Shown: positions 47,302-64,000, counted from the stretch's first letter. The stretch is DNA of 64,000 nucleotides from Candidatus Magasanikbacteria bacterium GW2011_GWC2_37_14 (GCA_000990355.1 LBSX01000003.1:21489-85488); one strand, 5' to 3'. The notes: generated by a model from the sequence alone, not told the origin. Program-made: numbers and translations.

Positions 47302-48648
47302 ATGTTGGATAAAAATAATTTAAAAGTAAAAAATTGGTTGCAAAATAAAGAAGCTTTAAAAGAAACTGTTGATTTGGCCAATGTTTTTTTTGTTGGCAAA
47401 TGGCAAGAAGAAAGTGTTTTGGACTGGCTTAATAAATTAAATCAGCATTTAGAAGATTATAATCCCCTAAAAATTGCTAGTGATCTGGATACGGCTTTTG
47501 TAAATACAGTTTTAAATCTTTTAGATTATAATTTACTCAGCGAAATTAAAGATGTCTTAACAAAATTAATTGCCAACAAAACCGAGGCTGAGGCGCAAAA
47601 ATTAGATGAGTTAATTAAACAATTTGAACCAGATTTTTCCAATATTGCCGCTGTTTTACTTTGTTCCTTGCCAACCGATACTAGCGTGGCTTTAGAAGAA
47701 ATAGACTCAAAAGATCTCACCCCTGGTTTTTATCGGTTTTTGGGTCAATCAGTATTGGGCCACGAACATCAAGTAAGTTTTGAAGCTTTTAAAATTTTGG
47801 AAAGTAGTGTTTTTAACAATCAAAAAAACACTACCAAAGACAAATTGATTTTTATTGCAGTGATATTTTTGGCATATAACCAATTTAAAAGTTTAAGTTA
47901 TACCCAACAAATAGAATTATTACTCAGTTATTTTTGGTCAGCAATTGAGGTTGGTGTGCCTGTTGCCGAAATTTTTGCAGAGCAACTGCTTACTGAAAAT
48001 TCTTTGGTTGAATATATTAATACGAGTATTTTGTGGGGCAAGACAATTTTGGAAAGTAAAGAAGTAATTTTTATAGATAAAAATAAGCAAAACTTTTTAG
48101 TGGGGGATCTGGTGATTAAATATCTAATAATGGCGGGCAATGACATTTTGCTTGAAGATAAACAAAATAGTTATTTAGAAAAAATTATTAAAGAAAATAA
48201 TTTAAATAGTGATAAAAAAGAAAAATTAATTAGTTTACTTTCTTTTTATTTGCGTTTAAGCACCTGTAGTTTAGTAGACTATAATGGTTTGTTGCACGAG
48301 CAAGGCCTGGTAAAAACACCTTTTGATTGGCAAGAATTAATTAATAATGGTATCTCTGATTTACAAGCAGAAGAAATAAAAAAATACTTTTCACAGTTAC
48401 ACCAATCTTTGAGCATTAAAATTGAAATAGTTAATTCTTTACAAACCATGTCAAACTGGCGCGAGGAGCCTTATTTTGAAAGAATGCTTGCCCTTAGCCA
48501 ATCATATGAAGATGTTTGCGGGTTGTATTTTGGTCCTTTGGTTTATTTTGATGGCGAAAAAGATAAATGGGATTTTTATGTAGAATTACCCAATGGTTTA
48601 AAAGAAAAGTTTGAAGAATCATTTAAAAAATATGGAATTAAAGAATAA
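47302..48648 (+). CDS. hypothetical protein, paralogous to the next ORF
   Basis: Shared segment LLSYFWSAIEVGVPVAEIFAEQLL vs LLKNYFYTAIVAGVPVKIILDRFL. Confidence 0.5.
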   Translation: MLDKNNLKVKNWLQNKEALKETVDLANVFFVGKWQEESVLDWLNKLNQHLEDYNPLKIASDLDTAFVNTVLNLLDYNLLSEIKDVLTKLIANKTEAEAQKLDELIKQFEPDFSNIAAVLLCSLPTDTSVALEEIDSKDLTPGFYRFLGQSVLGHEHQVSFEAFKILESSVFNNQKNTTKDKLIFIAVIFLAYNQFKSLSYTQQIELLLSYFWSAIEVGVPVAEIFAEQLLTENSLVEYINTSILWGKTILESKEVIFIDKNKQNFLVGDLVIKYLIMAGNDILLEDKQNSYLEKIIKENNLNSDKKEKLISLLSFYLRLSTCSLVDYNGLLHEQGLVKTPFDWQELINNGISDLQAEEIKKYFSQLHQSLSIKIEIVNSLQTMSNWREEPYFERMLALSQSYEDVCGLYFGPLVYFDGEKDKWDFYVELPNGLKEKFEESFKKYGIKE

Positions 48649-49585
48649 TTTTTGGTTTAATTATCAGTTACAAAATTACCACGAAGTTGTTGATTCTTTT
48701 GGTTTGTTAGAAAACAAACGTTTGGAAATTATTTCAAAAATTGGCAAGTTGGGTGAAAGGATTTTTTTATATGTTGATTTTATTTCTAAAAAAATATTAC
48801 AACACCAAATTAAACCCGAAGTAAGTTTTGAAACCAATCTTATTAAATATTTGGATTTAGGATTATTAAATAATTTTATTAACGATCCTTTAAACAAAGA
48901 AAATCGCGATTTGTTTTCCGAACAGCTTTTGCTGGTTTATTCGGCTTTGGGCGGGGCTTTGCCTATAAATGCTTATTCGGTAGAAGAAATGTTACAAATC
49001 AAATCAGCCGAATATTTATATTATGATGATAATATTTTTGTGGGTACTTTACGTTATATTTTTAGTGATTTGGATGTATTTTATAAATATTTACCAAGTA
49101 TTAGCGACTATTTGTTTAGAGATGGCCAAAATTCTATTAAACAAAACTTTGATTGGCACACAGCTTTTATTTATTCGGCTTTAATTAATTTTTGCTGGTC
49201 AAGTTTTTGGTTTTTAAAAAGTGAAGAACAAGAAAATTTGCTTAAAAATTATTTTTATACGGCCATTGTTGCCGGAGTGCCGGTAAAAATTATTTTAGAT
49301 CGTTTTTTGGCTGTGGGCACTGCAGAAGAAAAAGTACGTTGTCAACAATTGTTTGCCAATGGTCTTGAAAATAATTTAGAAGAAGTTCCTTTGAATGGAG
49401 ATTTTACCGAGTGGAAAAAATTATTAGCTATTATCCGTGGTTTTTCGGTGCGAATTAAGGGTTCAAATTCTGGTTTTGAACAAGAAGAATTTTTAAAGGA
49501 ATTTTATCAAAATCAACCAGGGAGAGACGTTTATCGCGGTTGGCTACGAGAAGTTTTGAATATAGTGTTTAGTTTGGAAAAGTAG
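48611..49585 (+). CDS. hypothetical protein, paralogue of 47302..48648
   Basis: See previous entry; overlaps it by 38 nt (the start may be the ATG at 48632). Confidence 0.5.
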   Translation: MKNHLKNMELKNNFWFNYQLQNYHEVVDSFGLLENKRLEIISKIGKLGERIFLYVDFISKKILQHQIKPEVSFETNLIKYLDLGLLNNFINDPLNKENRDLFSEQLLLVYSALGGALPINAYSVEEMLQIKSAEYLYYDDNIFVGTLRYIFSDLDVFYKYLPSISDYLFRDGQNSIKQNFDWHTAFIYSALINFCWSSFWFLKSEEQENLLKNYFYTAIVAGVPVKIILDRFLAVGTAEEKVRCQQLFANGLENNLEEVPLNGDFTEWKKLLAIIRGFSVRIKGSNSGFEQEEFLKEFYQNQPGRDVYRGWLREVLNIVFSLEK

Positions 49586-49589
49586 TACA

Positions 49590-50062
49590 ATTATCAGTTT
49601 TCAATTTACAATTTACAATAAATTTTCAATTAAATAATTTTCAATGAATAAAAGTTCTAACAACTATGATTTGGAAGAACGTACAGCAGTATTTAGTGGA
49701 GAGATAATTAAATTTTGTAGAAGTCTAAAAGAAGATAATGTTACTAGACCGTTGATAAATCAGTTAGTGCGTTCTGGAACTAGTATCGGGGCAAATTATT
49801 GTGAAGCTAATAACGCGAGTTCAAAAAAGGATTTTCAAAATAAAATATTTATTTGTAAAAAAGAGGCACAAGAGACCAAATATTGGTTAAGGACACTTTC
49901 TACCTGTTGTCCAGAAGAAGTAGAAAATTTAAGGAAACTTTGGAAGGAAACACAAGAATTATTGATGATATTTCAAAAAATTGTGAATACTTTAAGAAGT
50001 AAATGATAATTGATAAATTGAAAATTTATTGTAAATTGTAAAATGGTTATTGTAAATTAAAC
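49590..50062. repeat. family C palindromic element split by a four-helix-bundle gene (left arm 49590-49646, right arm 50005-50062)
   Basis: The arms match the empty copies C1, C2 and C4; the 4HB ATG sits in the conserved centre aattttcaATG. Confidence 0.6.
49644..50006 (+). CDS. four-helix-bundle protein (23S rRNA-IVS protein family)
   Basis: LVRSGTSIGANYCEANNASSKKDFQNKIFICKKEAQETKYWLRTL. Confidence 0.7.
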   Translation: MNKSSNNYDLEERTAVFSGEIIKFCRSLKEDNVTRPLINQLVRSGTSIGANYCEANNASSKKDFQNKIFICKKEAQETKYWLRTLSTCCPEEVENLRKLWKETQELLMIFQKIVNTLRSK

Positions 50063-51350: not shown

Positions 51351-51782
51351 ATGCAACAATTTGTAGTACCACAATTTATTGATGTTGAAGATAAAATTTT
51401 TGGGCCGATTACTACCCGTCAATTTTTAATTTTGTTGGCAGCAGGCTTGCTGATTTTTGTATTCTATAAATTAACAGATTTTGCTTTGTTTGTAACTCTT
51501 ACGGCAGTGTTGGGCGGGTTGGCACTGGTATTTGCTTTTGTAAAAATAAATGGCCAGCCTTTTCATTATTTTTTGTTAAATTTATTACAAACTTTGCGCA
51601 AACCCTCTTTAAGGGTCTGGAAGAAAAATTTGTCTGATGAAGAATTAAATTTTTTACGTAAATTAAATACCGAGAAAGCACCTGAAAAAATTGCTAGAAA
51701 AGAAGTAAAATCTGGGCATATCCATGATTTAGCATTACTCGTTAATACTGGTGGTTTTTATAAACCAGAGGATGAATTGTAA
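51351..51782 (+). CDS. PrgI/VirB3-like small membrane protein of type IV secretion systems
   Basis: MQQFVVPQFIDVEDKIFGPITTRQFLILL followed by 2 TM segments; directly upstream of VirB4. Confidence 0.5.
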   Translation: MQQFVVPQFIDVEDKIFGPITTRQFLILLAAGLLIFVFYKLTDFALFVTLTAVLGGLALVFAFVKINGQPFHYFLLNLLQTLRKPSLRVWKKNLSDEELNFLRKLNTEKAPEKIARKEVKSGHIHDLALLVNTGGFYKPEDEL

Positions 51783-51787
51783 TTATC

Positions 51788-51925
51788 TGTCATCCTGAAT
51801 TTATTTCAGGATCTCCTGTTAGCATTAAAAGTGTTGGGGATGCTGAAATGGTACTTGTCCTGAATTTATTTCAGGATTCAGCATGACAATTGCATTCAGG
51901 ATGACAACCAAGTTCAGCATGACAA
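51788..51925. repeat. array of family A half-sites (tgtcatcctgaa-tttat-ttcaggat; atgctgaa; gtcctgaatttatttcaggat; ttcagcatgaca x2; ttcaggatgaca)
   Basis: Six or more copies of the 12-nt half-site TGTCATSCTGAA or its reverse complement within 140 bp, upstream of the VirB4 genes. Confidence 0.65.
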
Positions 51926-51959
51926 ATAGAACGTTTTGTGTTAAAATGACAAGTGTAAT

Positions 51960-52649
51960 ATGGCCAAGAAACAAGAAATGAAAGGAAGAGTAAATAATAA
52001 GCCTTCGACCCAGGCTTATTTGCCTATTGCCGAAATTAGAGACGGGGTAGTTATCTTAAAAGATGGCACTTTGCGTAGTGTGCTAATGGTTTCTAGTATA
52101 AATTTTGCTTTAAAATCCGAAGATGAACAAAATGCTTTGGTATCGGCTTATGTGGGTTTTTTAAATTCATTGGATTTTCCTTTACAAATATTAATGCAGT
52201 CGCGACGTTTGCAAATAAAACCATATTTAGAAAAATTAGCCAAAATAGAACGTGAACAAACCAATGAATTGTTGCAAGTTCAAGTAGCCGATTACAAGGC
52301 TTTTATCGAAGAATTTGTAGAAATTGGGCAAATTATGACCAAGAGATTTTATGTAGTAGTGCCTTATGACCCCTTATCCAACAACAAAAAAAGCTTTTGG
52401 TCTAGATTTAAAGAAGTTTTAAAACCCGCAATTACTTTGCGCCTAAAAGATGAAAGGTTTAAAAAAAGAATAGAAGATTTGGAAATGCGTTTGCGTCAAG
52501 TAAGGAGCGGCTTAGAAAGTATGGGTTTGCAAATTGTACAACTAGACACCCAATCATTAATAGAATTATTTTATTCCACTTACAACCCCGATACTGCTTT
52601 TAGTGAGCAGTTGGGCAAAATAGGTGATATCCAAATAGAAAATATTTAA
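51960..52649 (+). CDS. VirB4/TraE-family N-terminal domain, encoded as a separate ORF
   Basis: YLPIAEIRDGVVILKDGTLRSVLMVSSINFALKSEDEQ, typical of the VirB4 N-terminus; stop TAA at 52647-52649 followed by ATG at 52651. Confidence 0.55.
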   Translation: MAKKQEMKGRVNNKPSTQAYLPIAEIRDGVVILKDGTLRSVLMVSSINFALKSEDEQNALVSAYVGFLNSLDFPLQILMQSRRLQIKPYLEKLAKIEREQTNELLQVQVADYKAFIEEFVEIGQIMTKRFYVVVPYDPLSNNKKSFWSRFKEVLKPAITLRLKDERFKKRIEDLEMRLRQVRSGLESMGLQIVQLDTQSLIELFYSTYNPDTAFSEQLGKIGDIQIENI

Positions 52650-52650
52650 T

Positions 52651-54519
52651 ATGGCCTTTAAGCCAATGCAAAATTTAAAGATTGATAATACTTTGAGTGG
52701 AGAATCAGTAAAAGAAAAAGCAAAAAAACAAATTGCCGAGGAAATTGTAAGTTTGGAAGAAGAAAAAGTTTATCGTCGCGGTACCGTGGCAATTCGGGAT
52801 TTAATTTCTCCTGCTGGTTTGCGCATCGAAAATAATTATATTCAATTGGGTGATGTATTTTTGCGCACTATTTTTGTAATCACTTATCCACGTTATATTG
52901 CCGTAGGTTGGGGCATGCCGATTTTAAATTTAAACATTACCATGGATGTTTCCATGTTTTTTTATCCAGTGCCTTCACCAATTATTTTAAAACAACTAAA
53001 GAAAAAAGTAGGTGCTTTGGAAGCACAAATTACTGGTGATGCCGAAAAAGGCGCTGCTCGCGACCCAATTCACGAAACTGCCCTTCGCGATATTGAACAA
53101 TTGCGTGATGATTTGACCCAAGGAGTGGAACATTTTTTTCAATTTTCTTTTTATGTAACTGTTTATGCCAAAGATTTAGACGAACTTAACCGGACTACCG
53201 AAGATGTAGAAAATATTTTTGGTTCCAAATTAATTTATAGTAAGCACGTGTTGTATCAAGCCGAACAAGGTTTTACTTCTACTTTGCCCCTCGGCATCGA
53301 CGAATTATCGATTGCTTTCAACATGAATTCTTCGCCAATTGCGGCTTCTTTTCCTTTTATTTCTTCGGAATTAACTTCGGATGATGGAATTTTGTATGGC
53401 ATTAATCGTCATAATAATAGTTTGATTATCTTTGATCGTTTTAGTTTACAAAATGCCAATATGGCAGTGTTTGCTACATCGGGTGCTGGCAAATCTTATA
53501 CCGTAAAGCTAGAAGTATTGCGCAGTTTAATGATGGGTGTGGATATTATTATTATTGATCCGGAAATGGAATATCAGCATTTGTGCGAAGCAGTGGGAGG
53601 TACTTATGTAAATATTTCTTTGGCTGCCGAAAGCAAGGTTAATCCTTTTGATTTACCACGACCAGTGGGTCAGCAGATTTCTACCGAAGATGTAATTCGT
53701 AGTGCCATTATTACCTTAAAAGGCTTAATCCGCATAATGTTCGGCAGTCTCAATGTTACTGAAGATTCCATTATGGATCGGGCTTTAAAAGAAACTTATG
53801 CCAAAAAAGATATTACGCCAGATTCTGATTTGGGTAGTATTGAACCGCCAATTATGCAGGATTTGCTAGAAGTTTTAGAAGGCATGCAAGGGGCAGAAAA
53901 TTTGGTGCTACGTTTAAGAAAATTTACCGAGGGTACTTTTTCGGGATTGTTCAATTCGCCCACCAATGTAAATATGAATAATCAGTTGGTGGTATTTTCG
54001 GTGCGTGATTTGGAAGACGAACTTCGCGCTATGGCAATTTACAATCTTATCAACTATGTTTGGAATATAGTTCGCAGTGAGCGCAAAAAAAGAATTTTAA
54101 TAATTGATGAAGCTTGGTGGTTAATGACTCACGAAGATAGTGCCAAATTTATTTATGCTTTGGTAAAACGTTGTCGCAAATATTATTTGGGGGTTACCAC
54201 TATTACCCAAGATGTGAGCGACTTTTTGCGTTCTCCCTATGGTCAGTCTATTGTAACCAATTCGGCTTTACAACTTTTATTGCGTCAAACACCAGCGGCA
54301 ATTGATATTGTACAAAAAACTTTTATGCTTACCGAAGGCGAAAAATATTTATTATTGGAAAGTGCAGTGGGTGAAGGAATATTTTTTGCTGGTTTAAAAC
54401 ATGCCGCGATTAAAGTAATTGCTTCTTATACCGAAGATCAGTTGGTAACTTCGGATCCCAAGCAATTAATGGAAATAGAAAAAGCTAAAAAAGAATACGA
54501 AGAACAAATGCTTAAATAA
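52651..54519 (+). CDS. VirB4/TrsE-family type IV secretion ATPase (C-terminal part, Walker A/B)
   Basis: Walker A ATSGAGKSYTV, Walker B ILIIDEAWWL, ITQDVSDF; the upstream part RGTVAIRDLISPAGLRIENNYIQLGDVFLRTIFVITYPRYI is typical. Confidence 0.75.
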   Translation: MAFKPMQNLKIDNTLSGESVKEKAKKQIAEEIVSLEEEKVYRRGTVAIRDLISPAGLRIENNYIQLGDVFLRTIFVITYPRYIAVGWGMPILNLNITMDVSMFFYPVPSPIILKQLKKKVGALEAQITGDAEKGAARDPIHETALRDIEQLRDDLTQGVEHFFQFSFYVTVYAKDLDELNRTTEDVENIFGSKLIYSKHVLYQAEQGFTSTLPLGIDELSIAFNMNSSPIAASFPFISSELTSDDGILYGINRHNNSLIIFDRFSLQNANMAVFATSGAGKSYTVKLEVLRSLMMGVDIIIIDPEMEYQHLCEAVGGTYVNISLAAESKVNPFDLPRPVGQQISTEDVIRSAIITLKGLIRIMFGSLNVTEDSIMDRALKETYAKKDITPDSDLGSIEPPIMQDLLEVLEGMQGAENLVLRLRKFTEGTFSGLFNSPTNVNMNNQLVVFSVRDLEDELRAMAIYNLINYVWNIVRSERKKRILIIDEAWWLMTHEDSAKFIYALVKRCRKYYLGVTTITQDVSDFLRSPYGQSIVTNSALQLLLRQTPAAIDIVQKTFMLTEGEKYLLLESAVGEGIFFAGLKHAAIKVIASYTEDQLVTSDPKQLMEIEKAKKEYEEQMLK

Positions 54520-55319: not shown

Positions 55320-55967
55320 ATGCTACATGGATTAATTAGTTTAATTAAAGATTATATTTTTCCCGTATATTGTCTAGGTTGCCAAACAGAAGGTGAGTGG
55401 GTTTGTAAAAATTGTTATAACAACATAAACGCGCAGAGCGTTTTTTGTTTTACAAATTTAGAGGATAATTTTGTTAATTTATTAATTTCGCCTTATCTTT
55501 ATCAAGAAAATGAACTGATCGGCAAAATTATTCAATATTTTAAATATCATTATGCAGAAGAATTAGAGCAGGTAATCTTTAATTTAATAAATAAATTTTT
55601 ATTAGAAAATAAAAATTTATTTGCAGAGATTGATTGTGTTATACCTGTGCCATTACATGCTCGGCGTTTGGCAGAGCGGGGATTTAACCAAGCCGAAGTT
55701 ATTGCTAAAATTTTAGGTGCTATTTTGAATAAGCCAGTTTTAAATAATTTGGGGCGTGTTCGATATACCAAGCAACAAGCCAAACTAAACAAATTGGCTA
55801 GGCAAGAAAATGTGGCTAGTGCTTTTGTGGTTAATGGTAAAATAAGCAATAATATTTTAATTGTTGATGATGTGTTTACTACAGGTGCGACTACAAAAGA
55901 ATGTGCCAAAGTGCTAAAACAAGCCGGAGCTAAAAAAATTATTGCCTTTACTTTGGCACGAGGTTAA
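55320..55967 (+). CDS. comFC: ComFC-family phosphoribosyltransferase-domain protein
   Basis: N-terminal C-x2-C...C-x2-C zinc motif; PRTase motif ILIVDDVFTTGAT. Confidence 0.75.
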   Translation: MLHGLISLIKDYIFPVYCLGCQTEGEWVCKNCYNNINAQSVFCFTNLEDNFVNLLISPYLYQENELIGKIIQYFKYHYAEELEQVIFNLINKFLLENKNLFAEIDCVIPVPLHARRLAERGFNQAEVIAKILGAILNKPVLNNLGRVRYTKQQAKLNKLARQENVASAFVVNGKISNNILIVDDVFTTGATTKECAKVLKQAGAKKIIAFTLARG

Positions 55968-56018: not shown

Positions 56019-56105
56019 GGAGAGATGGCTGAGTGGTCGATAGCAGCAGTTTACTAAACTGCAGTCCCCGTAAGGGGACCTAGGGTTCGAATCCCTATCT
56101 CTCCG
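56019..56105 (+). tRNA. type-II tRNA, Ser-like (G73, long variable arm) with anticodon loop TTACTAA, i.e. anticodon ACU by canonical numbering; no encoded CCA
   Basis: Hand-folded: acceptor GGAGAGA / TCTCTCC, D-stem GCT / AGC with an 11-nt loop, anticodon stem GCAGT / ACTGC, 18-nt variable hairpin GTCCCCGTAAGGGGAC, T-arm TAGGG-TTCGAAT-CCCTA. Confidence 0.7.
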
Positions 56106-56158
56106 CCTTCGCGCGCCGAAGCGCGCTTCGGCGGACAAAGTCCGCTAAATTAGACTTT

Positions 56159-56246
56159 GGAGAGGTGTCAGAGCGGTCTATCGTCCAGCTTTGCTAAAGC
56201 TGCAGGGGGCAACCCCTCGCGGGTTCGAATCCCGCCCTCTCCGCCA
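56159..56246 (+). tRNA. tRNA-Ser (anticodon GCU), CCA encoded
   Basis: Acceptor GGAGAGG / CCTCTCC, anticodon stem CAGCT / AGCTG with loop TTGCTAA, variable hairpin GGGGGCAACCCC, T-loop GGTTCGAATCC, then G-CCA. Confidence 0.85.
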
Positions 56247-56407: not shown

Positions 56408-56605
56408 ATGTCGACGATTGGTAAAAATATAAAAAATTTTAGAGAATTGAAAAAAATATCGCAGGATCGTCTTTCTAAACTTGCTGATATTTCATCTAAT
56501 ACAGTGGCGAAGCTAGAGTTAGATGATAGTACCAATCCAACTATTGATACTTTACAAAAGATAGCTGAAGCACTTGGTGTTAAGGTAGAAGATCTCATAA
56601 AATAA
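56408..56605 (+). CDS. XRE-family (Cro/CI-type) HTH transcriptional regulator
   Basis: IKNFRELKKISQDRLSKLADISSNTVAKLE...IDTLQKIAEALGV. Confidence 0.7.
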   Translation: MSTIGKNIKNFRELKKISQDRLSKLADISSNTVAKLELDDSTNPTIDTLQKIAEALGVKVEDLIK

Positions 56606-56608
56606 TTT

Positions 56609-59305
56609 ATGATCAATTTAGTAACCTTACAAGAAAATCTTGAAAATCTCAGTCAAAACTTTTCTAAAGAATCGTTTATTTTTGATTTGCTTTCTGTGTA
56701 TGAGTTACCCAAAAGCACTATTTCTTTATTGTCGAAAAGTCCTTCAAAATTATCTGGCAAAGAAGATCAGATTATTTTAAAAAACAAAGTACTTTTCCAC
56801 ATAACTACCCTTGAGGAAGATGAGCATGTTGCGATTGATGCACTACAAAAAGATAAGTCTTCATACAAGTTCAACCCGCGATTTATTATCGTTACAGACT
56901 TCGTAACCTTTTTAGCAATTGATACAAAAACAAAAGAAACACTTGATATTCAAATTGAGGATCTTGGCAAGCACTACGCTTTTTTCTTGCCATGGTGTGG
57001 TATGGAAAAATCTCAGCATGTAAATGAGAACCCTGCTGATATTCGTGCCGCCTACAAAATGGATAAGTTGTATCAAGCAATTGTGAACGACAATACTGAA
57101 TACTATAAAAACAACAGCCATGATCTAAATATATTTCTTTCACGCCTTTTGTTCTGTTTCTTTGCTGAGGATACTGGAATATTCCCTAAAACAGGAATGT
57201 TTACTAACTCTGTGACATCACACACCCATGAAAATGGCAACGAAATGGGTATTTATTTTTCAACTTTTTTTGATGTTTTAAATACTAAAGATTCTGAACG
57301 ATCAAAATATGCTTCACATTTCTTAGAATTTCCATATGTAAACGGAGGTCTTTTTGAAAGTAAGATTAAATTACCTACATTTACGGCAAGTTCACGAAAA
57401 CTGATTATTGAATGTGGAAAGTTGGACTGGAGTTCAATTAACCCAGATATTTTTGGATCTATGATTCAAGCTGTTGTTCATCCTGGCCAGAGAGAGAACC
57501 TTGGGATGCACTACACATCCGTTCCAAATATAATGAAAGTTATTGAACCTCTCTTTTTAAATAATCTCTATGAGGAAGTAAAAAATTCAAAGAATGATAC
57601 TAAAAAACTTGTAAAGCTCCGTGAACGAATCGCAAAAATTAAGATATTTGACCCCGCTTGTGGATCAGGTAATTTTCTTATTATTTCTTACAAAGAATTA
57701 TGTAAATTAGAGATTGAAATAATTAGATTACTAAATTTACAAAATTCATTTGCTACACAAGAAGGTTGGAATAGTACAATGTCAGGTATTACCTTAAATA
57801 ATTTTTATGGTATAGAGATAGACGATTTTGCACATGAAATAGCAAAGCTGTCTCTATATTTAGCTCAGCATCAAATAAACATTAAATTCCAAGAAGAGTT
57901 CGGAAAACTTAAACCAACCCTTCCTCTTAAAGAGAGCGGTAGAATCGTATATGCAAATGCAACTAGAATTGACTGGGATGAGGTTTGTCTTAAGAAAGAC
58001 CGTTTTGGGAATGAATATGAAATATATATTATCGGGAACCCACCATATTTAGGTTCAAAAAATCAGGATATTGAGCAAAAAAATGATATGGCTATTACTT
58101 TTAAGGGGGTGGAAGATTATAAAAAGTTAGATTATGTTGCTTGTTGGTTTTACATTGCATCTTCGTATATTCAAAATACAAATGTACAGTATGCTTTTGT
58201 GACTACCAACTCTATTACACAAGGTGAACAAGTATCCCTACTTTGGAACCTTATTTTAAGCAGAAATCAAGAAATTTTTCTTGCGCACCAATCATTCAAA
58301 TGGACAAATAATGCTAAGGGAAATGCAGGAGTTGCTGTTGTGGTTATTGGAATTAGAAATATTAATGATTCTGAAAAGTATCTTTATAACCAGGATCACA
58401 GACAGCTAGTAAAAAACATAAGTCCATATTTAACCAATACTTCAAACATTTTTATTTTACCACGAAACAATTCTTTAGGAAATTTTCCCTTAATGATTAC
58501 AGGTAGTGGTCCTGGTGATGACGGAAATTTGATTTTAGATATAGATGAAAAAGAAAAACTGATTATACAAAATAATAAGATTGAAAGTTTCTTAAAAAAA
58601 TATATTGGAGCGCAAGAATTTATTGGTAATACATATAGATATTGTATTTATATTACACAAGAAAATGTGAGTGCGGCTTATAAAATAACTCAATTAGTAC
58701 AACGATTTGAAAAAGTAAAAGCATTCAGATTGGCAAGTAAAAAAGAAGGAACCAAAAAAAAGGCCGTTACACCACATTTTTTTGATGAAGATCGATACAG
58801 GGATGATGAATTTATTTTAGTTCCTAAGGTAGGTTCTGAAAGACGAGAATATCTCCCAATTGGGTATTTTGATGGAACATTTCTTCCTTCTAACACGACA
58901 AAAGTTATTTATAATGCTAAACCTTGGCTTTTCGGTATCTTGTCTTCTAAAATGCACATTGTTTGGGTAAGAGCAGTTGCCGGAAGGTTAAAAACAGATA
59001 TGCAATATTCAAACACACTATGCTATAACACTTTCCCATTTCCGAATGTAACAGAAAAGCAAAAAGAGTCTCTCTCAAGTCATGTGTACAATATTTTAGA
59101 AGAACGAGAGAGGTATCCAGAAAAATCAATGGCAGAACTGTATGATCCAGATAAGATGCCTAATGGTTTAAGAGAAGCTCATAGATACTTAGATCAAGCC
59201 ATAGATCAGATATACCGAGGTAAACCGTTTGAAAGTGACGATGACCGACTAGCTCACTTGTTCAAACTTTACGAAGAGATGATTATTAGAAAAAATAACG
59301 AATAA
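56609..59305 (+). CDS. MmeI-family type IIL restriction-modification enzyme (N-terminal endonuclease, gamma-class N6-adenine methyltransferase, C-terminal TRD in one polypeptide)
   Basis: Motif order FDPACGSGNFL (I) then IIGNPPYLG (IV). Long colinear similarity to MmeI as recalled: LLFCFFAEDT, FPYVNGGLF, YGIEIDDFAHEIAKLSLYLAQHQ, VTTNSITQGEQVSLLW, FKWTN. Size 898 aa (MmeI is 919 aa). Confidence 0.75.
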   Translation: MINLVTLQENLENLSQNFSKESFIFDLLSVYELPKSTISLLSKSPSKLSGKEDQIILKNKVLFHITTLEEDEHVAIDALQKDKSSYKFNPRFIIVTDFVTFLAIDTKTKETLDIQIEDLGKHYAFFLPWCGMEKSQHVNENPADIRAAYKMDKLYQAIVNDNTEYYKNNSHDLNIFLSRLLFCFFAEDTGIFPKTGMFTNSVTSHTHENGNEMGIYFSTFFDVLNTKDSERSKYASHFLEFPYVNGGLFESKIKLPTFTASSRKLIIECGKLDWSSINPDIFGSMIQAVVHPGQRENLGMHYTSVPNIMKVIEPLFLNNLYEEVKNSKNDTKKLVKLRERIAKIKIFDPACGSGNFLIISYKELCKLEIEIIRLLNLQNSFATQEGWNSTMSGITLNNFYGIEIDDFAHEIAKLSLYLAQHQINIKFQEEFGKLKPTLPLKESGRIVYANATRIDWDEVCLKKDRFGNEYEIYIIGNPPYLGSKNQDIEQKNDMAITFKGVEDYKKLDYVACWFYIASSYIQNTNVQYAFVTTNSITQGEQVSLLWNLILSRNQEIFLAHQSFKWTNNAKGNAGVAVVVIGIRNINDSEKYLYNQDHRQLVKNISPYLTNTSNIFILPRNNSLGNFPLMITGSGPGDDGNLILDIDEKEKLIIQNNKIESFLKKYIGAQEFIGNTYRYCIYITQENVSAAYKITQLVQRFEKVKAFRLASKKEGTKKKAVTPHFFDEDRYRDDEFILVPKVGSERREYLPIGYFDGTFLPSNTTKVIYNAKPWLFGILSSKMHIVWVRAVAGRLKTDMQYSNTLCYNTFPFPNVTEKQKESLSSHVYNILEERERYPEKSMAELYDPDKMPNGLREAHRYLDQAIDQIYRGKPFESDDDRLAHLFKLYEEMIIRKNNE

Positions 59306-59309
59306 TTTT

Positions 59310-61247
59310 ATGAAAACCATTCAAGTCGCAGAAGCAACATACGCACAAACTGGAGAAAGTACCAAAATCAATAGTTTTGGTATGCGTGAAATGCAGGCAA
59401 AAGCATTCGAAAAAAGAACTGCGCAGTACCTCCTTTTGAAAGCTCCTCCAGCATCAGGAAAATCTCGAGCTTTAATGTTCCTTGCTTTGGACAAGCTCAC
59501 TAATCAAGGTATCAAGAAAGTAATTGTAGCTGTTCCTGAAAAATCAATCGGCGGATCTTTCAGCGAAACTAATTTAACTGATAGTGGATTTTTCGCAGAC
59601 TGGAAACCAAATGATAATTATAATCTTTGTACCCCTGGCCTTGATAATGCCAAAGGAAAGGTTGAAGCGTTTAAGAACTTTATGGAAAACAATGAGAAGA
59701 TTCTTATCTGTACCCACGCTACATTTCGTTTTGCTTGTGAACAAATTGAAGATACAAAATTTAATGACATACTCATTGCTATAGATGAATTCCACCATGT
59801 TTCTGCTGATAAAGAGAGTAGTATTTTAGGACGTGTATTGCATGGGATAATGACTAACTCAAATGCTCACGTTATTGCGATGACTGGATCATATTTCCGA
59901 GGTGACGGTGTCGCTGTTTTGTTACCAGAAGACGAGGCTAAATTTCAGAAAGTAACATATAACTATTATCAACAATTGAATGGTTACACCTATTTAAAGA
60001 CTTTGGGCATCGGATATCACTTTTATCAAGGCAGGTACACATCAGCAATCGCTGAGGTTTTGGATACGAATAAGAAAACGATTTTACATATTCCAAACGT
60101 AAATTCTGGGGAATCTACAAAAGACAAACTTAATGAGGTTGATTTGATTTTAGATATTATTGGTGAAGTAGATCATCAAGATCATGAGACTGGAGTTATT
60201 TATGTGAAGCGTGATGGTGATGGGAAAATTCTAAAAGTAGCAAACCTTGTTGATGATTCAGTAGATCGAGATAAAATTTCAAACTATCTTCGTACTATGA
60301 GAAAAGAAGATGACATGGATATTATTATTGCTCTTGGTATGGCAAAAGAAGGTTTTGACTGGCCATATTGTGAACATGCTTTAACTGTTGGTTACCGTAG
60401 TTCACTTACTGAAATTATTCAGATCATTGGTCGCTGTACTCGTGATAGTGCAAATAAGACTCATTCACAGTTTACAAACCTTATCGCACAGCCCGATGCA
60501 AAAGATGGTGAAGTTAAGGTGTCTGTAAACAATATGCTTAAAGCAATAACTTGTTCTTTGCTTATGGAGCAAGTCATGGCCCCTCACTATAACTTCAAAC
60601 CACGCTTTCCAAATGATGATACTGCATTTACTCCAGGTGAAATTAAAATAAATGGTTTTAAAGCACCAAGCACTGATCGTGTACGAGAGATTATTGAATC
60701 TGATATCAACGACCTTAAAGCTTCAATTCTTCAAGATGACCAGATGATTAAGGCATTGCCTGGAAATGTTGACCCAGAGGTAATAAACAAGGTAATGATT
60801 CCAAAGATTATTCAAATCAAATATCCTGATCTCACAGATCTTGAAGTTGAAGAAGTTCGTCAGCATGTAGTAGTTGATTCTGTAATTAAAAATGGAGAAA
60901 TAAAAGAAGTTGGAGATAAGAAATTTGTTCGTATGGCAGGTCAATTTGTTAATATTGACGATCTTAATATCGACCTTATCGACCGCATTAATCCATTTCA
61001 AGAAGCTTTTGAGATTCTTTCAAAGTCAGTTACATCAAATATTCTTAAGGTTATACAAGATACAATTGATTCATCACGAATTGAAATGACACCTGAAGAG
61101 GTTAAGATTCTATGGCCTAAAGCCAAGGAGTTCACCATACAAACGGGTCGAAAGCCCGACATTTCATCATCTGATCCTCTTGAGAAGCGTTTGGCAGAAG
61201 CCGTTCTTTATTTGAAGAAACTTAAGGCTGAACAAATTCAAAATTAA
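59310..61247 (+). CDS. SF2 (DEAH-type) helicase/ATPase, co-operonic with the MmeI-like gene
   Basis: Motif I APPASGKSRA, motif II IDEFHH, motif III MTGSYF, motif VI QIIGRCTR; 4-nt gap to the upstream gene. Confidence 0.7.
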   Translation: MKTIQVAEATYAQTGESTKINSFGMREMQAKAFEKRTAQYLLLKAPPASGKSRALMFLALDKLTNQGIKKVIVAVPEKSIGGSFSETNLTDSGFFADWKPNDNYNLCTPGLDNAKGKVEAFKNFMENNEKILICTHATFRFACEQIEDTKFNDILIAIDEFHHVSADKESSILGRVLHGIMTNSNAHVIAMTGSYFRGDGVAVLLPEDEAKFQKVTYNYYQQLNGYTYLKTLGIGYHFYQGRYTSAIAEVLDTNKKTILHIPNVNSGESTKDKLNEVDLILDIIGEVDHQDHETGVIYVKRDGDGKILKVANLVDDSVDRDKISNYLRTMRKEDDMDIIIALGMAKEGFDWPYCEHALTVGYRSSLTEIIQIIGRCTRDSANKTHSQFTNLIAQPDAKDGEVKVSVNNMLKAITCSLLMEQVMAPHYNFKPRFPNDDTAFTPGEIKINGFKAPSTDRVREIIESDINDLKASILQDDQMIKALPGNVDPEVINKVMIPKIIQIKYPDLTDLEVEEVRQHVVVDSVIKNGEIKEVGDKKFVRMAGQFVNIDDLNIDLIDRINPFQEAFEILSKSVTSNILKVIQDTIDSSRIEMTPEEVKILWPKAKEFTIQTGRKPDISSSDPLEKRLAEAVLYLKKLKAEQIQN

Positions 61248-61248
61248 T

Positions 61249-62403
61249 ATGGATAAAAAAGATTTACTAGATTTAATAGATGATGATGATTTAGGACTTC
61301 TTGATATAGAGAAGAAAACTGTTTCGGTTACGCCGGATGATCGATTATCAGAATCATTTATGGAAATAAATGAGTTCTTTTCATTACATAATATCGAGCC
61401 AAAAAGTGGTGGAGACATTCATGAACATAAACTAGCATCACGTCTCAAACATATTAGAGAAAACAAAGAACAAAGAGACTTTCTTAGTAAGTACGATACT
61501 CATGGTCTGTTAAAAATCGAGAATAAAGACATCGATACAGTAAATGATATTTTTGAAGACGATGATTTAGATCTTCTTTCAATTGAAGATAGTTCTGTTT
61601 TTAATATAAAGAATGTGCCAGAAATAAAACAAGATCGTTCTGATCCTGACTTTGTTGCACAGAGAAAGATTTGTGCTGATTTTGATCAGTATGAACATTT
61701 GTTCGCACAGGTTCAAAGAGATTTGAAAAATGGCACAAAAAATCTCGCGACTTTTGTAGAAAATGAAATGAAACAGGGGGATTTCTTTGTTCTTAGTGGT
61801 GTTTTAATATATCTAGAAAAAATCTATGATCCATACCGAGGTAATAGTCAAAAAATAAATAGAAGAACTCGCTGTATATATGAGAATGGTACCGAATCAA
61901 GTGTACTTTTACGTTCGCTAGGAAAGAGATTGTCTGATGTAGGTTACGCCATAAAAGATAATGTAAATGTTGTAAGTGTTGAAGATGGCGATTCAGAAAC
62001 CGGTTATATTTATGTTCTCAAGTCACTAAGTAACAATCCTAGAATTGCTAGCACAAAAAACCTTTTTAAAATTGGCTTCTCAACCACTAGTGTTGAAGAA
62101 CGTATAAAGAACGCGCAACAGGATCCTACTTATCTTATGTCCCCAGTTTCTATTGTTGCTACCTACAGATGTTTTAATATGAATCCTCAAAGATTTGAGA
62201 GATTAGTACATCGTTTCTTTGGTGATTCATGTCTAGATATTGAGATCACTGACAACAACGGAAAAAACTACAATCCAAAAGAGTGGTTTATTGCCCCAAT
62301 TAGGGTGATTGGGAATGTTATTGAATTAATTATCAAAGGAGAGATTGTTAATTACTTTTATGATAAAAACGCAGAATCAATTATAAAGATTTCTAATCCT
62401 TAA
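61249..62403 (+). CDS. T5orf172/MUG113 (GIY-YIG-related) domain protein with an acidic repeat N-terminus
   Basis: GYIYVLKS...LFKIGFSTTSVEERIKN...PVSIVATY matches the T5orf172 core; N-terminal acidic repeats DLLDLIDDDDLGLLDIE / IFEDDDLDLLSIED; 1-nt gap after the helicase gene. Confidence 0.6.
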   Translation: MDKKDLLDLIDDDDLGLLDIEKKTVSVTPDDRLSESFMEINEFFSLHNIEPKSGGDIHEHKLASRLKHIRENKEQRDFLSKYDTHGLLKIENKDIDTVNDIFEDDDLDLLSIEDSSVFNIKNVPEIKQDRSDPDFVAQRKICADFDQYEHLFAQVQRDLKNGTKNLATFVENEMKQGDFFVLSGVLIYLEKIYDPYRGNSQKINRRTRCIYENGTESSVLLRSLGKRLSDVGYAIKDNVNVVSVEDGDSETGYIYVLKSLSNNPRIASTKNLFKIGFSTTSVEERIKNAQQDPTYLMSPVSIVATYRCFNMNPQRFERLVHRFFGDSCLDIEITDNNGKNYNPKEWFIAPIRVIGNVIELIIKGEIVNYFYDKNAESIIKISNP

Positions 62404-63718
62404 GTAGTGTTAATATTTTATCTTTATAAACAATTCTTGATCTCAAATTTCCAAGCAGTTCTCTCTTCTCGCTAACCGATCCCTCCTTTAAAATATACTT
62501 AGCATAGTTCCGTATATCTGTGTCTTCTCTATTCTTCATTTTATCAGTACTACCAAGTACTGACCTTTGAAATATATTAAATCTGGCAATTTCATTTTCT
62601 AGCTTTTGTCGCATTCCAAGTTCGTTAATATTTACTTTATCCAATATCTTTAATAGCTCAATTATTAAATCTTCCTCTCGTATATACTTATTTTTACAAT
62701 TTCTGTCTCTCGCTCTTGAACATGAATAGTAAATATATCTTGCATGTGTGCCATCTTTTAATTGTTTATATTTTTCTTCAGCAGAAATTCCACTGCCACA
62801 ATACCCACAGGTAAATAACTTAGTAAATGAGAACTCGTGATTTTCTCGAACTATCTGGTCTCTTTTTAATTGGGCTCTAGCTTTTTCAAATAATTCTTGG
62901 GTTATTAGTGGTTCATGTTTTCCTGTATACCAATTTCCACTTCCTCTTGGACTTTCAAATACTCCATAATAAAAACTGTTATTAATTATTCTATATACCC
63001 CAGCCAATGTCAGCGGTTTATTGCCACGAGTATAAAAATTTAGTTCATGCTTTAGCCAATTATATATTTTTCTGCCCGAATAATGTTCATTAGCAACTTT
63101 TTCAAACATTTTTTTAATTGCTGGAGCACGCAGTGGATCAACTATCACTTGGCATTTCTTATCCATTAGTTTTTGATTTAGATATCCAAGTGGTGCCACA
63201 CCTGGCCACAATCCCATTTCTACTCTAGTTCTTAAACCTCGTTTTACATTTATTCCTCTATTATCATTTTCAAGTTTGGCTTGCGATCCCAATATCATCA
63301 ACAGGAACTTTTCGTTTGGATTATTACCAAATCTCTGTCCGAACGTCCTTATTTCTACAAGAGCGCCCGAATCCATTAAATCTACTATTTTCCCTAAGTC
63401 CCCAGCATTTCTGGAAATTCTGTCTGGTGCCCAAGTCAAAATACCATTGAATTTACCTTGTTTTAATTCCTCTATGATTTCATTGAAAATTGGCCTTTGA
63501 CCAGTTTCTTTGGCCGAGTGGGATTCTCTTTTCATTGTAACCACATCTAAATTCTCCTTTTCTGCCAGCTGAAGCATCTCCTTAATTTGGCTATCTATGG
63601 AGAGAACCTGCCTTTCCTCTGATTCTGTTGATTTTCTTGCGTAAAGGCAGTATTTTACCTTAATTTGGGTCGTTATTTTGCCCGTAGACCCCGTGGGCAT
63701 TAGTGCGATATTCATCAT
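62393..63718 (-). CDS. large serine recombinase (resolvase catalytic domain + recombinase domain + zinc ribbon)
   Basis: YARKSTESEERQVLSIDSQ (catalytic Ser region), GILTWAPDRISRN, C-terminal CGYCGSGISAEE ... YYSC. Confidence 0.8.
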   Translation of the reverse strand: MMNIALMPTGSTGKITTQIKVKYCLYARKSTESEERQVLSIDSQIKEMLQLAEKENLDVVTMKRESHSAKETGQRPIFNEIIEELKQGKFNGILTWAPDRISRNAGDLGKIVDLMDSGALVEIRTFGQRFGNNPNEKFLLMILGSQAKLENDNRGINVKRGLRTRVEMGLWPGVAPLGYLNQKLMDKKCQVIVDPLRAPAIKKMFEKVANEHYSGRKIYNWLKHELNFYTRGNKPLTLAGVYRIINNSFYYGVFESPRGSGNWYTGKHEPLITQELFEKARAQLKRDQIVRENHEFSFTKLFTCGYCGSGISAEEKYKQLKDGTHARYIYYSCSRARDRNCKNKYIREEDLIIELLKILDKVNINELGMRQKLENEIARFNIFQRSVLGSTDKMKNREDTDIRNYAKYILKEGSVSEKRELLGNLRSRIVYKDKILTLLKD

Positions 63719-63854: not shown

Positions 63855-64000
63855 ATGCCGCATCTCATCCCGATTGAATTGATTGAAAAAATATCAAAAG
63901 GTCCTTCTGACACAAAAATAGAAAGTGTTTCAAATTTACAAAATTACATCCAAGATCTTCTGGGTGATAGTCATCACACTTTTTTGCAAGGTTCTTATAG
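63855..64000 (+). CDS. 5' part of a hypothetical ORF running off the window
   Basis: Open frame only (MPHLIPIELIEKISKGPSD...). Confidence 0.2.
   Translation, partial: MPHLIPIELIEKISKGPSDTKIESVSNLQNYIQDLLGDSHHTFLQGSY

Follow-up and report, generated by a model that had tools for sequence, protein, structure and literature searches.

A DnmA/YeeA-YeeB-YeeC-type restriction-modification-like operon in a defense island of a Candidatus Magasanikbacteria genome

The DNA analyzed here is a stretch of 64,000 nucleotides from Candidatus Magasanikbacteria bacterium GW2011_GWC2_37_14 (hereafter the window, with all positions counted from its first letter), in which a gene for a superfamily 2 (SF2) helicase is directly followed by a gene for a T5orf172 (GIY-YIG-like) protein. 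In a preliminary description of the window this pair was regarded as a possible anti-phage system without a name, placed behind a restriction-modification (RM) enzyme. It is now very probable that region 56408-62403 constitutes a single operon encoding an RM-like defense system of the DnmA/YeeA-YeeB-YeeC type, preceded by a helix-turn-helix (HTH) regulator. This operon sits in a defense island of a genome of the candidate phyla radiation (CPR). The intuition that helicase and nuclease act together against phages was reasonable and the domain assignments behind it were correct, but the boundary of the system was drawn too narrowly, as the methyltransferase (MTase) encoded upstream belongs to it. 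Moreover, the claim of novelty fails because the three-gene system has been described since 2009 (PMC2731913). The trio of the window is a new CPR example of a known, mechanistically unstudied anti-phage system. What interest remains stems from the absence of mechanistic studies, from conflicting genetics (defense in Vibrio, none in Bacillus subtilis) and from several features that may concern its assembly.

A nuclease-dead methyltransferase in the operon of the pair

Four open reading frames (ORFs) follow one another on the + strand with spacers of 3, 4 and 1 nt. The first of them (56408..56605) encodes a 65-aa XRE-type HTH protein and stops 3 nt before the ATG of an 898-aa MmeI-family adenine MTase/specificity subunit of the YeeA/DnmA type (56609..59305). 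The stop of the MTase gene lies 4 nt before the start of a YeeB-type SF2 helicase/translocase of 645 aa (59310-61247), and a single nucleotide separates the helicase stop from the start of the T5orf172/GIY-YIG ORF, the YeeC-type nuclease subunit of 384 aa (61249-62403). Coordinates and lengths of these last two ORFs are exactly those first proposed.

The central observation concerns the MTase. Pfam recognizes in it the five MmeI domains (MmeI_N, MmeI_hel, MmeI_Mtase, MmeI_TRD and MmeI_C), and phmmer aligns its residues 89-891 with residues 107-902 of MmeI (PDB 5HR4) at an E value of 1.9e-183. The S-adenosylmethionine motif DPACGSGNFL (aa 348-357) and the NPPY motif (aa 477-480) are both intact. 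The first 88 residues do not align to MmeI by phmmer, even when they are used as a separate query. When an HHalign profile of 51 trio MTases was compared with residues 1-175 of MmeI (whose N-terminal sequence was verified as identical to 5HR4 over residues 1-151), an inactivated PD-ExK domain was recovered at aa 1-160 (56609..57088, + strand) with a probability of 97%. In this alignment MmeI D70 falls into a 7-residue deletion, E80 is paired with H64 (K in the family consensus) and K82 with T66 in a variable column. Although alignment confidence is low around the triad, aa 40-88 of the MTase are devoid of any (D/E)xK motif, and the PD-ExK residues matching D70, E80 and K82 are absent from the protein. 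Lacking this triad, the MTase cannot be a complete RM enzyme. Therefore, given the loss of the triad and the 3/4/1-nt spacing, the RM enzyme behind which the pair had been placed is indeed of the MmeI family, but it is a nuclease-dead MTase/specificity protein of the same operon and not an independent neighbor. Its dead N-terminal domain is a candidate docking platform for the helicase and the nuclease.

This situation has consequences for annotation. PADLOC scores the MTase as REase_MTase_IIG (998 bits, full length) and holds no models for the helicase and nuclease partners, so that surveys will call such trios complete type IIG enzymes. It is thus probable that the system is both miscounted and misdescribed in them.

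An HTH product identical to that of the window is encoded on L088/L089 and matches Pfam HTH_3/HTH_19/HTH_26, XRE-type HTH proteins of 68-69 aa are encoded 5-11 nt upstream of the MTase in seven close CPR relatives, and a small HTH gene (XRE or excisionase type) is found just before the MTase in about 13 of 56 loci, these seven relatives included. A homolog of this exact 65-aa protein is present in only 2 of 57 other loci, and for this reason it is considered an accessory and not a core part. It is a candidate controller of the operon resembling the C proteins of RM systems.

Conservation, distribution and remnants of the three-gene unit

An alignment of relatives of the T5orf172 protein was scanned against a one-genome-per-species collection and gave at least 555 confirmed loci, of which the best 80 were kept; these span CPR, Bacteroidota, Alpha-, Beta-, Gamma- and Epsilonproteobacteria, Spirochaetota, Verrucomicrobiota and others. 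Of the 72 loci whose sequence reaches far enough upstream, 71 have a helicase homolog as the gene immediately before the T5orf172 gene, on the same strand, and the one locus without it (L016) is a shortened gene fragment; the T5orf172 protein is consequently not one that mostly occurs without the helicase, and the pairing itself holds. The association extends to the MTase, as 49 of 52 testable loci have an MmeI-like gene upstream in the same orientation. The three loci without it (L016, L044, L058) are degraded, with either a truncated helicase or a truncated T5orf172 gene. MTase and helicase genes are separated by an insert of 0.5-4.2 kb in 24 of the 49 loci (insert loci L023, L031, L036, L043, L050, L052, L055, L059, L060, L072, L075, L077-L082). 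These inserts encode AlbA_2/Schlafen plus HATPase_c_4 proteins (12-13 loci), RhuM (4 loci), Fic, SIR2 plus HerA, AAA_13 and Mrr_cat. AlbA_2/Schlafen, RhuM, Fic, SIR2-HerA and AAA_13 are usual passengers of type I RM operons.

The trio is very widespread, being represented in those at least 555 species-representative genomes and by a nuclease family that forms 431 clusters at 50% identity (at E<=1e-30), most of them of full-length proteins. It is also carried in complete form by plasmids of Bacillus, Rhodococcus and Staphylococcus, and the helicase occurs in 265 plasmid records, 168 of which are conjugative or mobilizable. In phages the helicase is nearly absent, with 3 fragmentary matches in 50,697 records, and a phage-borne function is rejected on this basis.

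Remnants of the system are found in resistance regions, with the MTase truncated by the insertion sequences IS26 or ISAba1. In Proteus plasmid pG32-177 (L002 4734-9138) a remnant lies in the resistance region and its MTase is cut by IS26, whereas a truncated helicase and a split nuclease gene are left in Acinetobacter baumannii pABTJ1 (L084 5528-8144). The latter remnants, which were named 'YeeB, YeeC' in the literature (PMC3691203), lie within the OXA-23 carbapenem-resistance transposon Tn2009/Tn6206. In Klebsiella quasipneumoniae pCAV1947-173 (L085 7016-8182) a lone full-length nuclease gene adjoins insertion sequence elements. Pair-only and solo arrangements do occur, at the edge of the family.

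Exchange of specificity modules on a co-evolving chassis

The target-recognition domain (TRD) of the MTase (aa 612-813; 58442..59047, + strand) is exchanged between near-identical cassettes. In the ten cassettes closest to that of the window, the helicase is 92% identical to the window copy, the MTase N-domain 85%, the MTase C-terminus 80% and the nuclease 73%, as opposed to 40% (maximum 45%) for the TRD, and across 58350-58900, the stretch of the TRD, there is no similarity at the DNA level in any relative. Pairwise distances calculated for each part over 1275 locus pairs lead to the same picture. Distances of the MTase N-domain track those of the helicase (rho 0.82) and of the nuclease (rho 0.77), while those of the TRD are decoupled from every other part (rho 0.08-0.25). 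Since the TRD is diverged and decoupled while the remaining parts co-vary, specificity modules are swapped on a co-evolving three-protein chassis, as is the case in MmeI-family and type I systems. This combination of TRD exchange and co-variation is an RM signature. Together with intact catalytic motifs and RM-type passengers, the turnover of the TRD argues that intact copies such as that of the window are working RM-like systems.

The helicase

All the motifs attributed to the helicase at the outset were found, namely motif I (PASGKSRA, aa 47-54, 59448-59471), motif II (DEFHH, aa 159-163, 59784-59798) and motif VI (QIIGRCTRD, aa 371-379, 60420-60446), to which motif III (TGSYFRGD, aa 192-199, 59883-59906) can be added, all of them on the + strand. 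These ATPase motifs are invariant in a cross-phylum alignment. Pfam detects weak matches to ResIII, DEAD and Helicase_C (E 1.6e-7 to 2.3e-5), every one of which falls in aa 25-378, and it finds no nuclease domain, as had been noticed from the sequence; the C-terminal 260 aa are without any match, and the C-terminal half scanned separately gave none at E<=10. The profile of the helicase retrieves no solved relative among the PDB sequences, the only matches being marginal ones of the RecA2 domain to LGP2 and XPB, and no solved type I, III or ISP motor (LlaGI and LlaBIII chains included) appears at E<=1. PADLOC and NCBIfam give weak PbeA and dnd_restrict matches over the RecA2 domain only.

A separate observation is the degree to which this protein is conserved. 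The helicase is 59-79% identical between CPR, Bacillota, Actinomycetota, Pseudomonadota and Bacteroidota, with a mean column identity of 71% over the whole length. Such conservation, which includes the uncharacterized C-terminal half, is unusually strong for a gene of a mobile defense system or a defense island. Across phyla, MTase and nuclease are about 45-50% identical, against about 60-70% for the helicase.

The nuclease subunit

The 384-aa protein is composed of a first acidic motif, a three-helix bundle, a second acidic motif, a disordered linker, an SH3/Tudor-like barrel and the T5orf172 (GIY-YIG) domain. The T5orf172/MUG113 core recognized in the preliminary description is borne out by Pfam, with matches to T5orf172 (PF10544, E 7.2e-14, aa 252-361) and MUG113 (PF13455, E 2.2e-13). 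The T5orf172/GIY-YIG domain as a whole covers aa 250-384 (61996..62400, + strand) and keeps Y255, G276, R285, H321 and E345 intact; these residues, as well as the segments GYIYVL (252-257) and LFKIGF (272-277), are invariant across 46 diverse members of the family. The protein belongs to the T5orf172 branch of the GIY-YIG superfamily and is predicted to be catalytically active. In agreement with this assignment, T5orf172 is an experimentally supported nuclease domain in Gp88 of phage ICP1 (PMC8263062).

An AlphaFold model built on the same 46 members reached a mean predicted local distance difference test (pLDDT) score of 89 and a predicted template modeling (pTM) score of 0.47, the latter indicating a flexible arrangement of the domains. 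In this model a three-helix bundle (aa 29-82) is followed, from motif 2 to about aa 140, by a linker of low confidence, and the middle domain (aa 146-237; 61684..61959, + strand) is formed by a helix and a small beta-barrel of the SH3/Tudor/KOW type that belongs to no Pfam family. Structural matches of the nuclease are T5orf172 proteins and SLX1. A Foldseek search of the model against the PDB returned nothing at E<=0.001, the sequence profile of the nuclease found no solved relative in the PDB beyond a marginal match to spastin, and the isolated bundle and middle domain had no Pfam match at E<=10.

In two long relatives of the nuclease an ASCH domain is present at the C-terminus (P0128, aa 424-499; P0259, aa 449-514). 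ASCH is a PUA-like domain, from the superfamily of the EVE/YTH readers of modified bases. Its presence hints that some nuclease subunits may read the modification status themselves.

Putative assembly elements

Two features stand out as possible elements of assembly. The first is the pair of acidic repeats noticed early on before the nuclease core, which proved to be real. Copy 1, LLDLIDDDDLGLL (aa 6-18; 61264..61302, + strand), overlaps a helix at aa 3-11 in the model, and copy 2, VNDIFEDDDLDLL (aa 98-110; 61540..61578, + strand), begins with a short helix at aa 98-103. Both follow one consensus, hydrophobic-x-x-hydrophobic-hydrophobic-x-x-D-x-hydrophobic-G-hydrophobic-L. Among the 46 members, conservation in copy 1 reaches 44 for D13, 40 for G16 and 41 for L18, and in copy 2 it reaches 42 for D105, 33 for G108 (D in the window protein) and 37 for L110. 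As 40 of the 46 diverse members carry the two copies, conserved position by position, the repeats are not a chance of composition.

The second feature is a helical module common to the helicase and the nuclease. Residues 602-638 at the C-terminus of the helicase (61113..61223, + strand; W..K..F....GR.P......D..E.R.AE) align by HHalign with aa 37-72 of the nuclease (61357-61464), within its three-helix bundle, with a probability of 85.5% and an E value of 5.7e-6 over 36 columns, compared with 0.2-0.3% in control comparisons of the module with the other nuclease domains. The motif common to both proteins reads F/W...F....GR.P......D..E..LA. The Pfam 'helicase-associated' domain was considered as the identity of this module and is unsupported, Pfam giving no match at E<=10.

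We infer that the twin acidic motifs and the common helical module are elements of assembly. No earlier description of the helical module common to helicase and nuclease, of the acidic repeats as a conserved duplicated motif, or of the 65-aa HTH gene ahead of the operon was found in the searchable literature. Twin motifs, helical module and dead nuclease domain offer handles for experimental work.

Relationship to known systems

The system to which the window belongs was delineated when homologs of MmeI were found to fall into two sets, the second of which lacks PD-ExK and differs in the first ~100 residues (Morgan et al. 2009, PMC2731913). Next to homologs of this second set, a YeeB-like DEAD helicase and a YeeC-like GIY-YIG protein are 'invariably' encoded, and it was proposed that the three proteins form a type I-like RM system with single-strand modification (PMC2731913). 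YeeA was later renamed DnmA (Nye 2020, PMC7261158; Fernandez 2023, PMC9973331), and its homologs display conserved synteny, with the helicase at position +1 and the T5orf172 protein at +2 (PMC9973331). DnmA is described as methylating the non-palindromic site GACGAG (PMC7261158; PMC9973331). In Vibrio crassostreae, inactivation of yeeAB abolishes resistance to one phage subclade (Piel 2021, bioRxiv 10.1101/2021.05.05.442762). A Streptococcus mutans 'DnmA' preprint and a 2026 survey of BREX contain nothing on the helicase or the nuclease.

The locus of the window shares with DnmA/YeeA-YeeB-YeeC an MTase that matches MmeI save for its first ~100 residues and is devoid of D70/E80/K82, a DEAD-type helicase at +1 followed at +2 by a T5orf172/GIY-YIG protein with a C-terminal domain of this kind, the lack of a second MTase, and a location in horizontally acquired DNA beside recombinases. 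No second DNA MTase flanks the trio in the window, where the neighbors are the HTH gene, two tRNA-Ser genes, a ComF-like gene, a serine recombinase and a CD-NTase gene. The nuclease of the window is 43.6% identical (86% coverage) to the gene called YeeC on pABTJ1/Tn2009, whose neighbor is the gene called YeeB. The locus differs from the DnmA-YeeB-YeeC prototypes in its CPR host (Magasanikbacteria) and in the upstream XRE-type HTH gene. YeeB and YeeC of B. subtilis have been reported to lack stretches found in the active Vibrio proteins, whereas the window proteins are full length.

Other RM and defense systems resemble the trio in part. MmeI proper (type IIL, PDB 5HR4) has the same succession of MTase, helical spacer, TRD and C-terminal domains, switches specificity through its TRD and methylates adenine on a single strand of an asymmetric site, as is likely for the window. 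However, MmeI cuts by means of its own N-terminal PD-ExK and has no need for ATP, while in the window a separate ATP motor and a GIY-YIG nuclease have presumably taken over the cutting. Type IIL is thus ruled out, in spite of the REase_MTase_IIG label, by the absence of a catalytic PD-ExK from the polypeptide. Type ISP (LlaGI, LlaBIII), type I and type III systems also combine an adenine MTase with a TRD, an SF2 ATPase motor and a nuclease; types ISP and III hemimethylate asymmetric sites and avoid self-targeting through pairs of inverted sites, and the genes inserted between MTase and helicase in the window's family resemble those of type I operons. In contrast to the three proteins and the GIY-YIG nuclease of the window, type ISP enzymes are single polypeptides with an Mrr nuclease, type III Res carries its own PD-ExK, and type I systems have a separate HsdS and a PD-ExK fused to HsdR. 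Type ISP is consequently ruled out by the three separate ORFs and the lack of an Mrr domain, and type I by a TRD fused to the MTase, the absence of HsdS, a helicase without nuclease domain and the GIY-YIG nuclease.

A closer analogy of logic, built from different proteins, is offered by MANTIS (formerly Gao_RL; bioRxiv 10.64898/2026.09.23.753747). There, a BREX/MmeI-related MTase hemimethylates short asymmetric sites and is coupled to an effector, a helicase-nuclease with a preference for unmodified sites in inverted pairs. Unlike MANTIS, the window has no equivalent of the AAA+ protein MtsA or of MtsB, and its nuclease is a separate GIY-YIG protein and not a fused one as in MtsD; MANTIS/Gao_RL is ruled out by the absence of all three from the operon and of any PADLOC Gao_RL match. 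BREX and DISARM are likewise rejected, as PglX/DrmMI matches are partial, cover the MTase core and reach 49 bits against a cut-off of 500, and no PglZ, BrxC or DrmA/B genes are present in the neighborhood. Dnd/Pbe is rejected as well, the weak PbeA and dnd_restrict matches being confined to the RecA2 domain.

Proposed mechanism and alternative explanations

Taken with moderate confidence, the trio would operate through an MmeI-type hemimethylase, an ATP motor and a GIY-YIG cutter. The bases for this proposal are the domain content, the triad loss, the co-occurrence, the TRD exchange and the co-variation observed here, along with the single-strand methylation by the MTase family and the phage protection by yeeAB known from the literature. 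The MmeI-type subunit would read a short asymmetric site through its exchangeable TRD and methylate one adenine on one strand, thereby marking self DNA, and it cannot cut because its PD-ExK triad has been lost. At an unmethylated site, its dead nuclease domain would provide the platform on which the YeeB SF2 motor is recruited or licensed, and this motor would then translocate on DNA at the expense of ATP. YeeC, tethered by its N-terminal twin acidic motifs and helical bundle, would deliver the GIY-YIG (T5orf172) nuclease so that foreign DNA is cut. As modification affects one strand, cleavage probably needs two unmodified sites in inverse orientation, by analogy with type III, type ISP and MANTIS. 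What we infer is that the motor is recruited and translocates, how cleavage is arranged in space and what the twin motifs do. More tentatively, and with chances slightly under even, the trio may represent a distinct and still unclassified RM type (not I, IIL, III or ISP) that assembles through the twin acidic motif and the common helical module and that, in CPR, spreads in the form of a compact HTH-controlled cassette with a swappable TRD beside a serine recombinase.

Several points weigh against this interpretation and its details. Translocation on double-stranded DNA is an assumption, because by profile the helicase is no closer to type I/III/ISP motors than to RIG-I-like proteins and XPB, and the model of the helicase, obtained from a shallow alignment, has a pLDDT of 53 and is too poor for use. 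A hairpin that is conserved in trio MTases (TD97F...AID105-T-K107, aa 96-107, 56894-56929; D105 in 100% and K107 in 96%) resembles a PD-DxK motif, and its conservation leaves room for a cryptic nuclease activity in the MTase, even though it aligns with MmeI D115/D123 (MmeI 115-127), that is, with later strands and not with the canonical active site. YeeA and its Moraxella osloensis homolog, when assayed alone, were without endonuclease activity (PMC2731913). In B. subtilis, deletion of dnmA, yeeB or yeeC leaves phage susceptibility and transformation unchanged, and phages show no depletion of the DnmA site (Nye 2020, PMC7261158; Fernandez 2023, PMC9973331). In M. osloensis pSKB0120-4 (L086 4646-8212), a divergent helicase (741 aa) and a GIY-YIG protein (444 aa) are encoded without an adjacent MTase, behind a RelB/YafQ module. 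Finally, the names YeeB and YeeC are assigned here on the grounds of architecture, literature and the A. baumannii Tn2009 genes, and the searchable literature holds no biochemical reconstitution or structural study of any member of the trio.

The best surviving alternative, although an unlikely one, is that the trio is an epigenetic regulator or a decaying relic, in which an orphan methylase is accompanied by a helicase and a nuclease reduced to non-functional passengers, as has been proposed for B. subtilis. The deletions without phage or transformation phenotype in that species, where N6-methyladenine affects promoter activity, fit with this idea, as do the remnants that are common on plasmids of Proteus, A. 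baumannii (Tn2009) and Klebsiella. In the window, however, none of the three ORFs is truncated and their catalytic motifs are intact, purifying selection on the helicase is very strong (mean identity of 75% across phyla), and TRD turnover on a conserved chassis is the product of conflict driven by specificity. Furthermore, yeeAB defends Vibrio, and the locus adjoins a recombinase and a CD-NTase gene.

A two-gene anti-phage system that consists of helicase and T5orf172 protein and needs no MTase, with the MmeI-like gene as an independent type IIL/IIG neighbor, is improbable. The full-length PADLOC call of 998 bits would agree with such independence, and so would the divergent M. osloensis pair and the genes lying between MTase and pair in 24 of 49 loci. 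This possibility is countered by the absence of the PD-ExK triad and the inactivity of YeeA on its own, by the presence of the MmeI-like gene upstream in 49 of 52 loci with all three exceptions degraded, and by the 4-nt spacing and the co-variation of the MTase N-domain with both partners. Least probable of all is that the pair serves the mobile element that carries it (through homing, integration/excision or maintenance by post-segregational killing) and not phage defense as such: GIY-YIG/T5orf172 domains are common in homing endonucleases, the cassette is placed between two tRNA-Ser genes and a large serine recombinase with homologs in many CPR relatives, a tRNA-Ser 3' fragment recurs in L007 and L012, and 168 of the 265 plasmid records are conjugative or mobilizable, but the recombinase is found at different positions and in either orientation and is missing from most loci outside CPR, a search of the window for att-like repeats gave none, homing has no role for a site-specific MTase whose TRD can be exchanged, and RM systems are themselves addictive, so that this explanation overlaps the RM-like one without replacing it.

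Genomic neighborhood

The cassette is bordered upstream by the two tRNA-Ser genes (56019-56246) and downstream by the large serine recombinase gene (62393-63718), which is convergent and overlaps the nuclease gene by 11 nt. Homologs of this recombinase accompany the cassette in several CPR relatives at varying positions, and given this variation in position and orientation, and its absence from most non-CPR loci, it does not belong to the conserved unit. The 3' end of tRNA-Ser(gct) recurs beside the cassette with 92-94% identity (L007 3913-3959, L012 100-149), and the cassette may be an integrative island associated with tRNA-Ser. No att-type direct repeat of the tRNA-Ser 3' end was found near the recombinase within the window, the right border of the island lying beyond it.

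A CD-NTase-like gene (SMODS faint, CD_NTase_C) starts at 63855 on the + strand and runs off the window at 64000; it continues at L089 12607-13485 and L088 7666-8544. It is followed by ORFs of 153 and 70 aa, a SNase-domain protein and a ParB_N-N6_N4_Mtase, which lies ~5 kb further on (L088) and is not adjacent to the trio. These surroundings look like a neighbor of the type of CBASS (cyclic oligonucleotide-based anti-phage signaling system), that is, a defense island.

Further upstream, a type IV secretion-like cluster (51351-54519) encodes a PrgI-family protein, a TraC-like protein and a VirB4/TraG-type P-loop ATPase, and it is followed by a ComF-like phosphoribosyltransferase gene (55320-55967). 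At 49644-50006, in the stretch of the window with the lowest GC content (0.29, 48001-50000), lies a gene for a 120-aa four-helix-bundle protein of the '23S rRNA-intervening sequence protein' family (Pfam E 1e-15).

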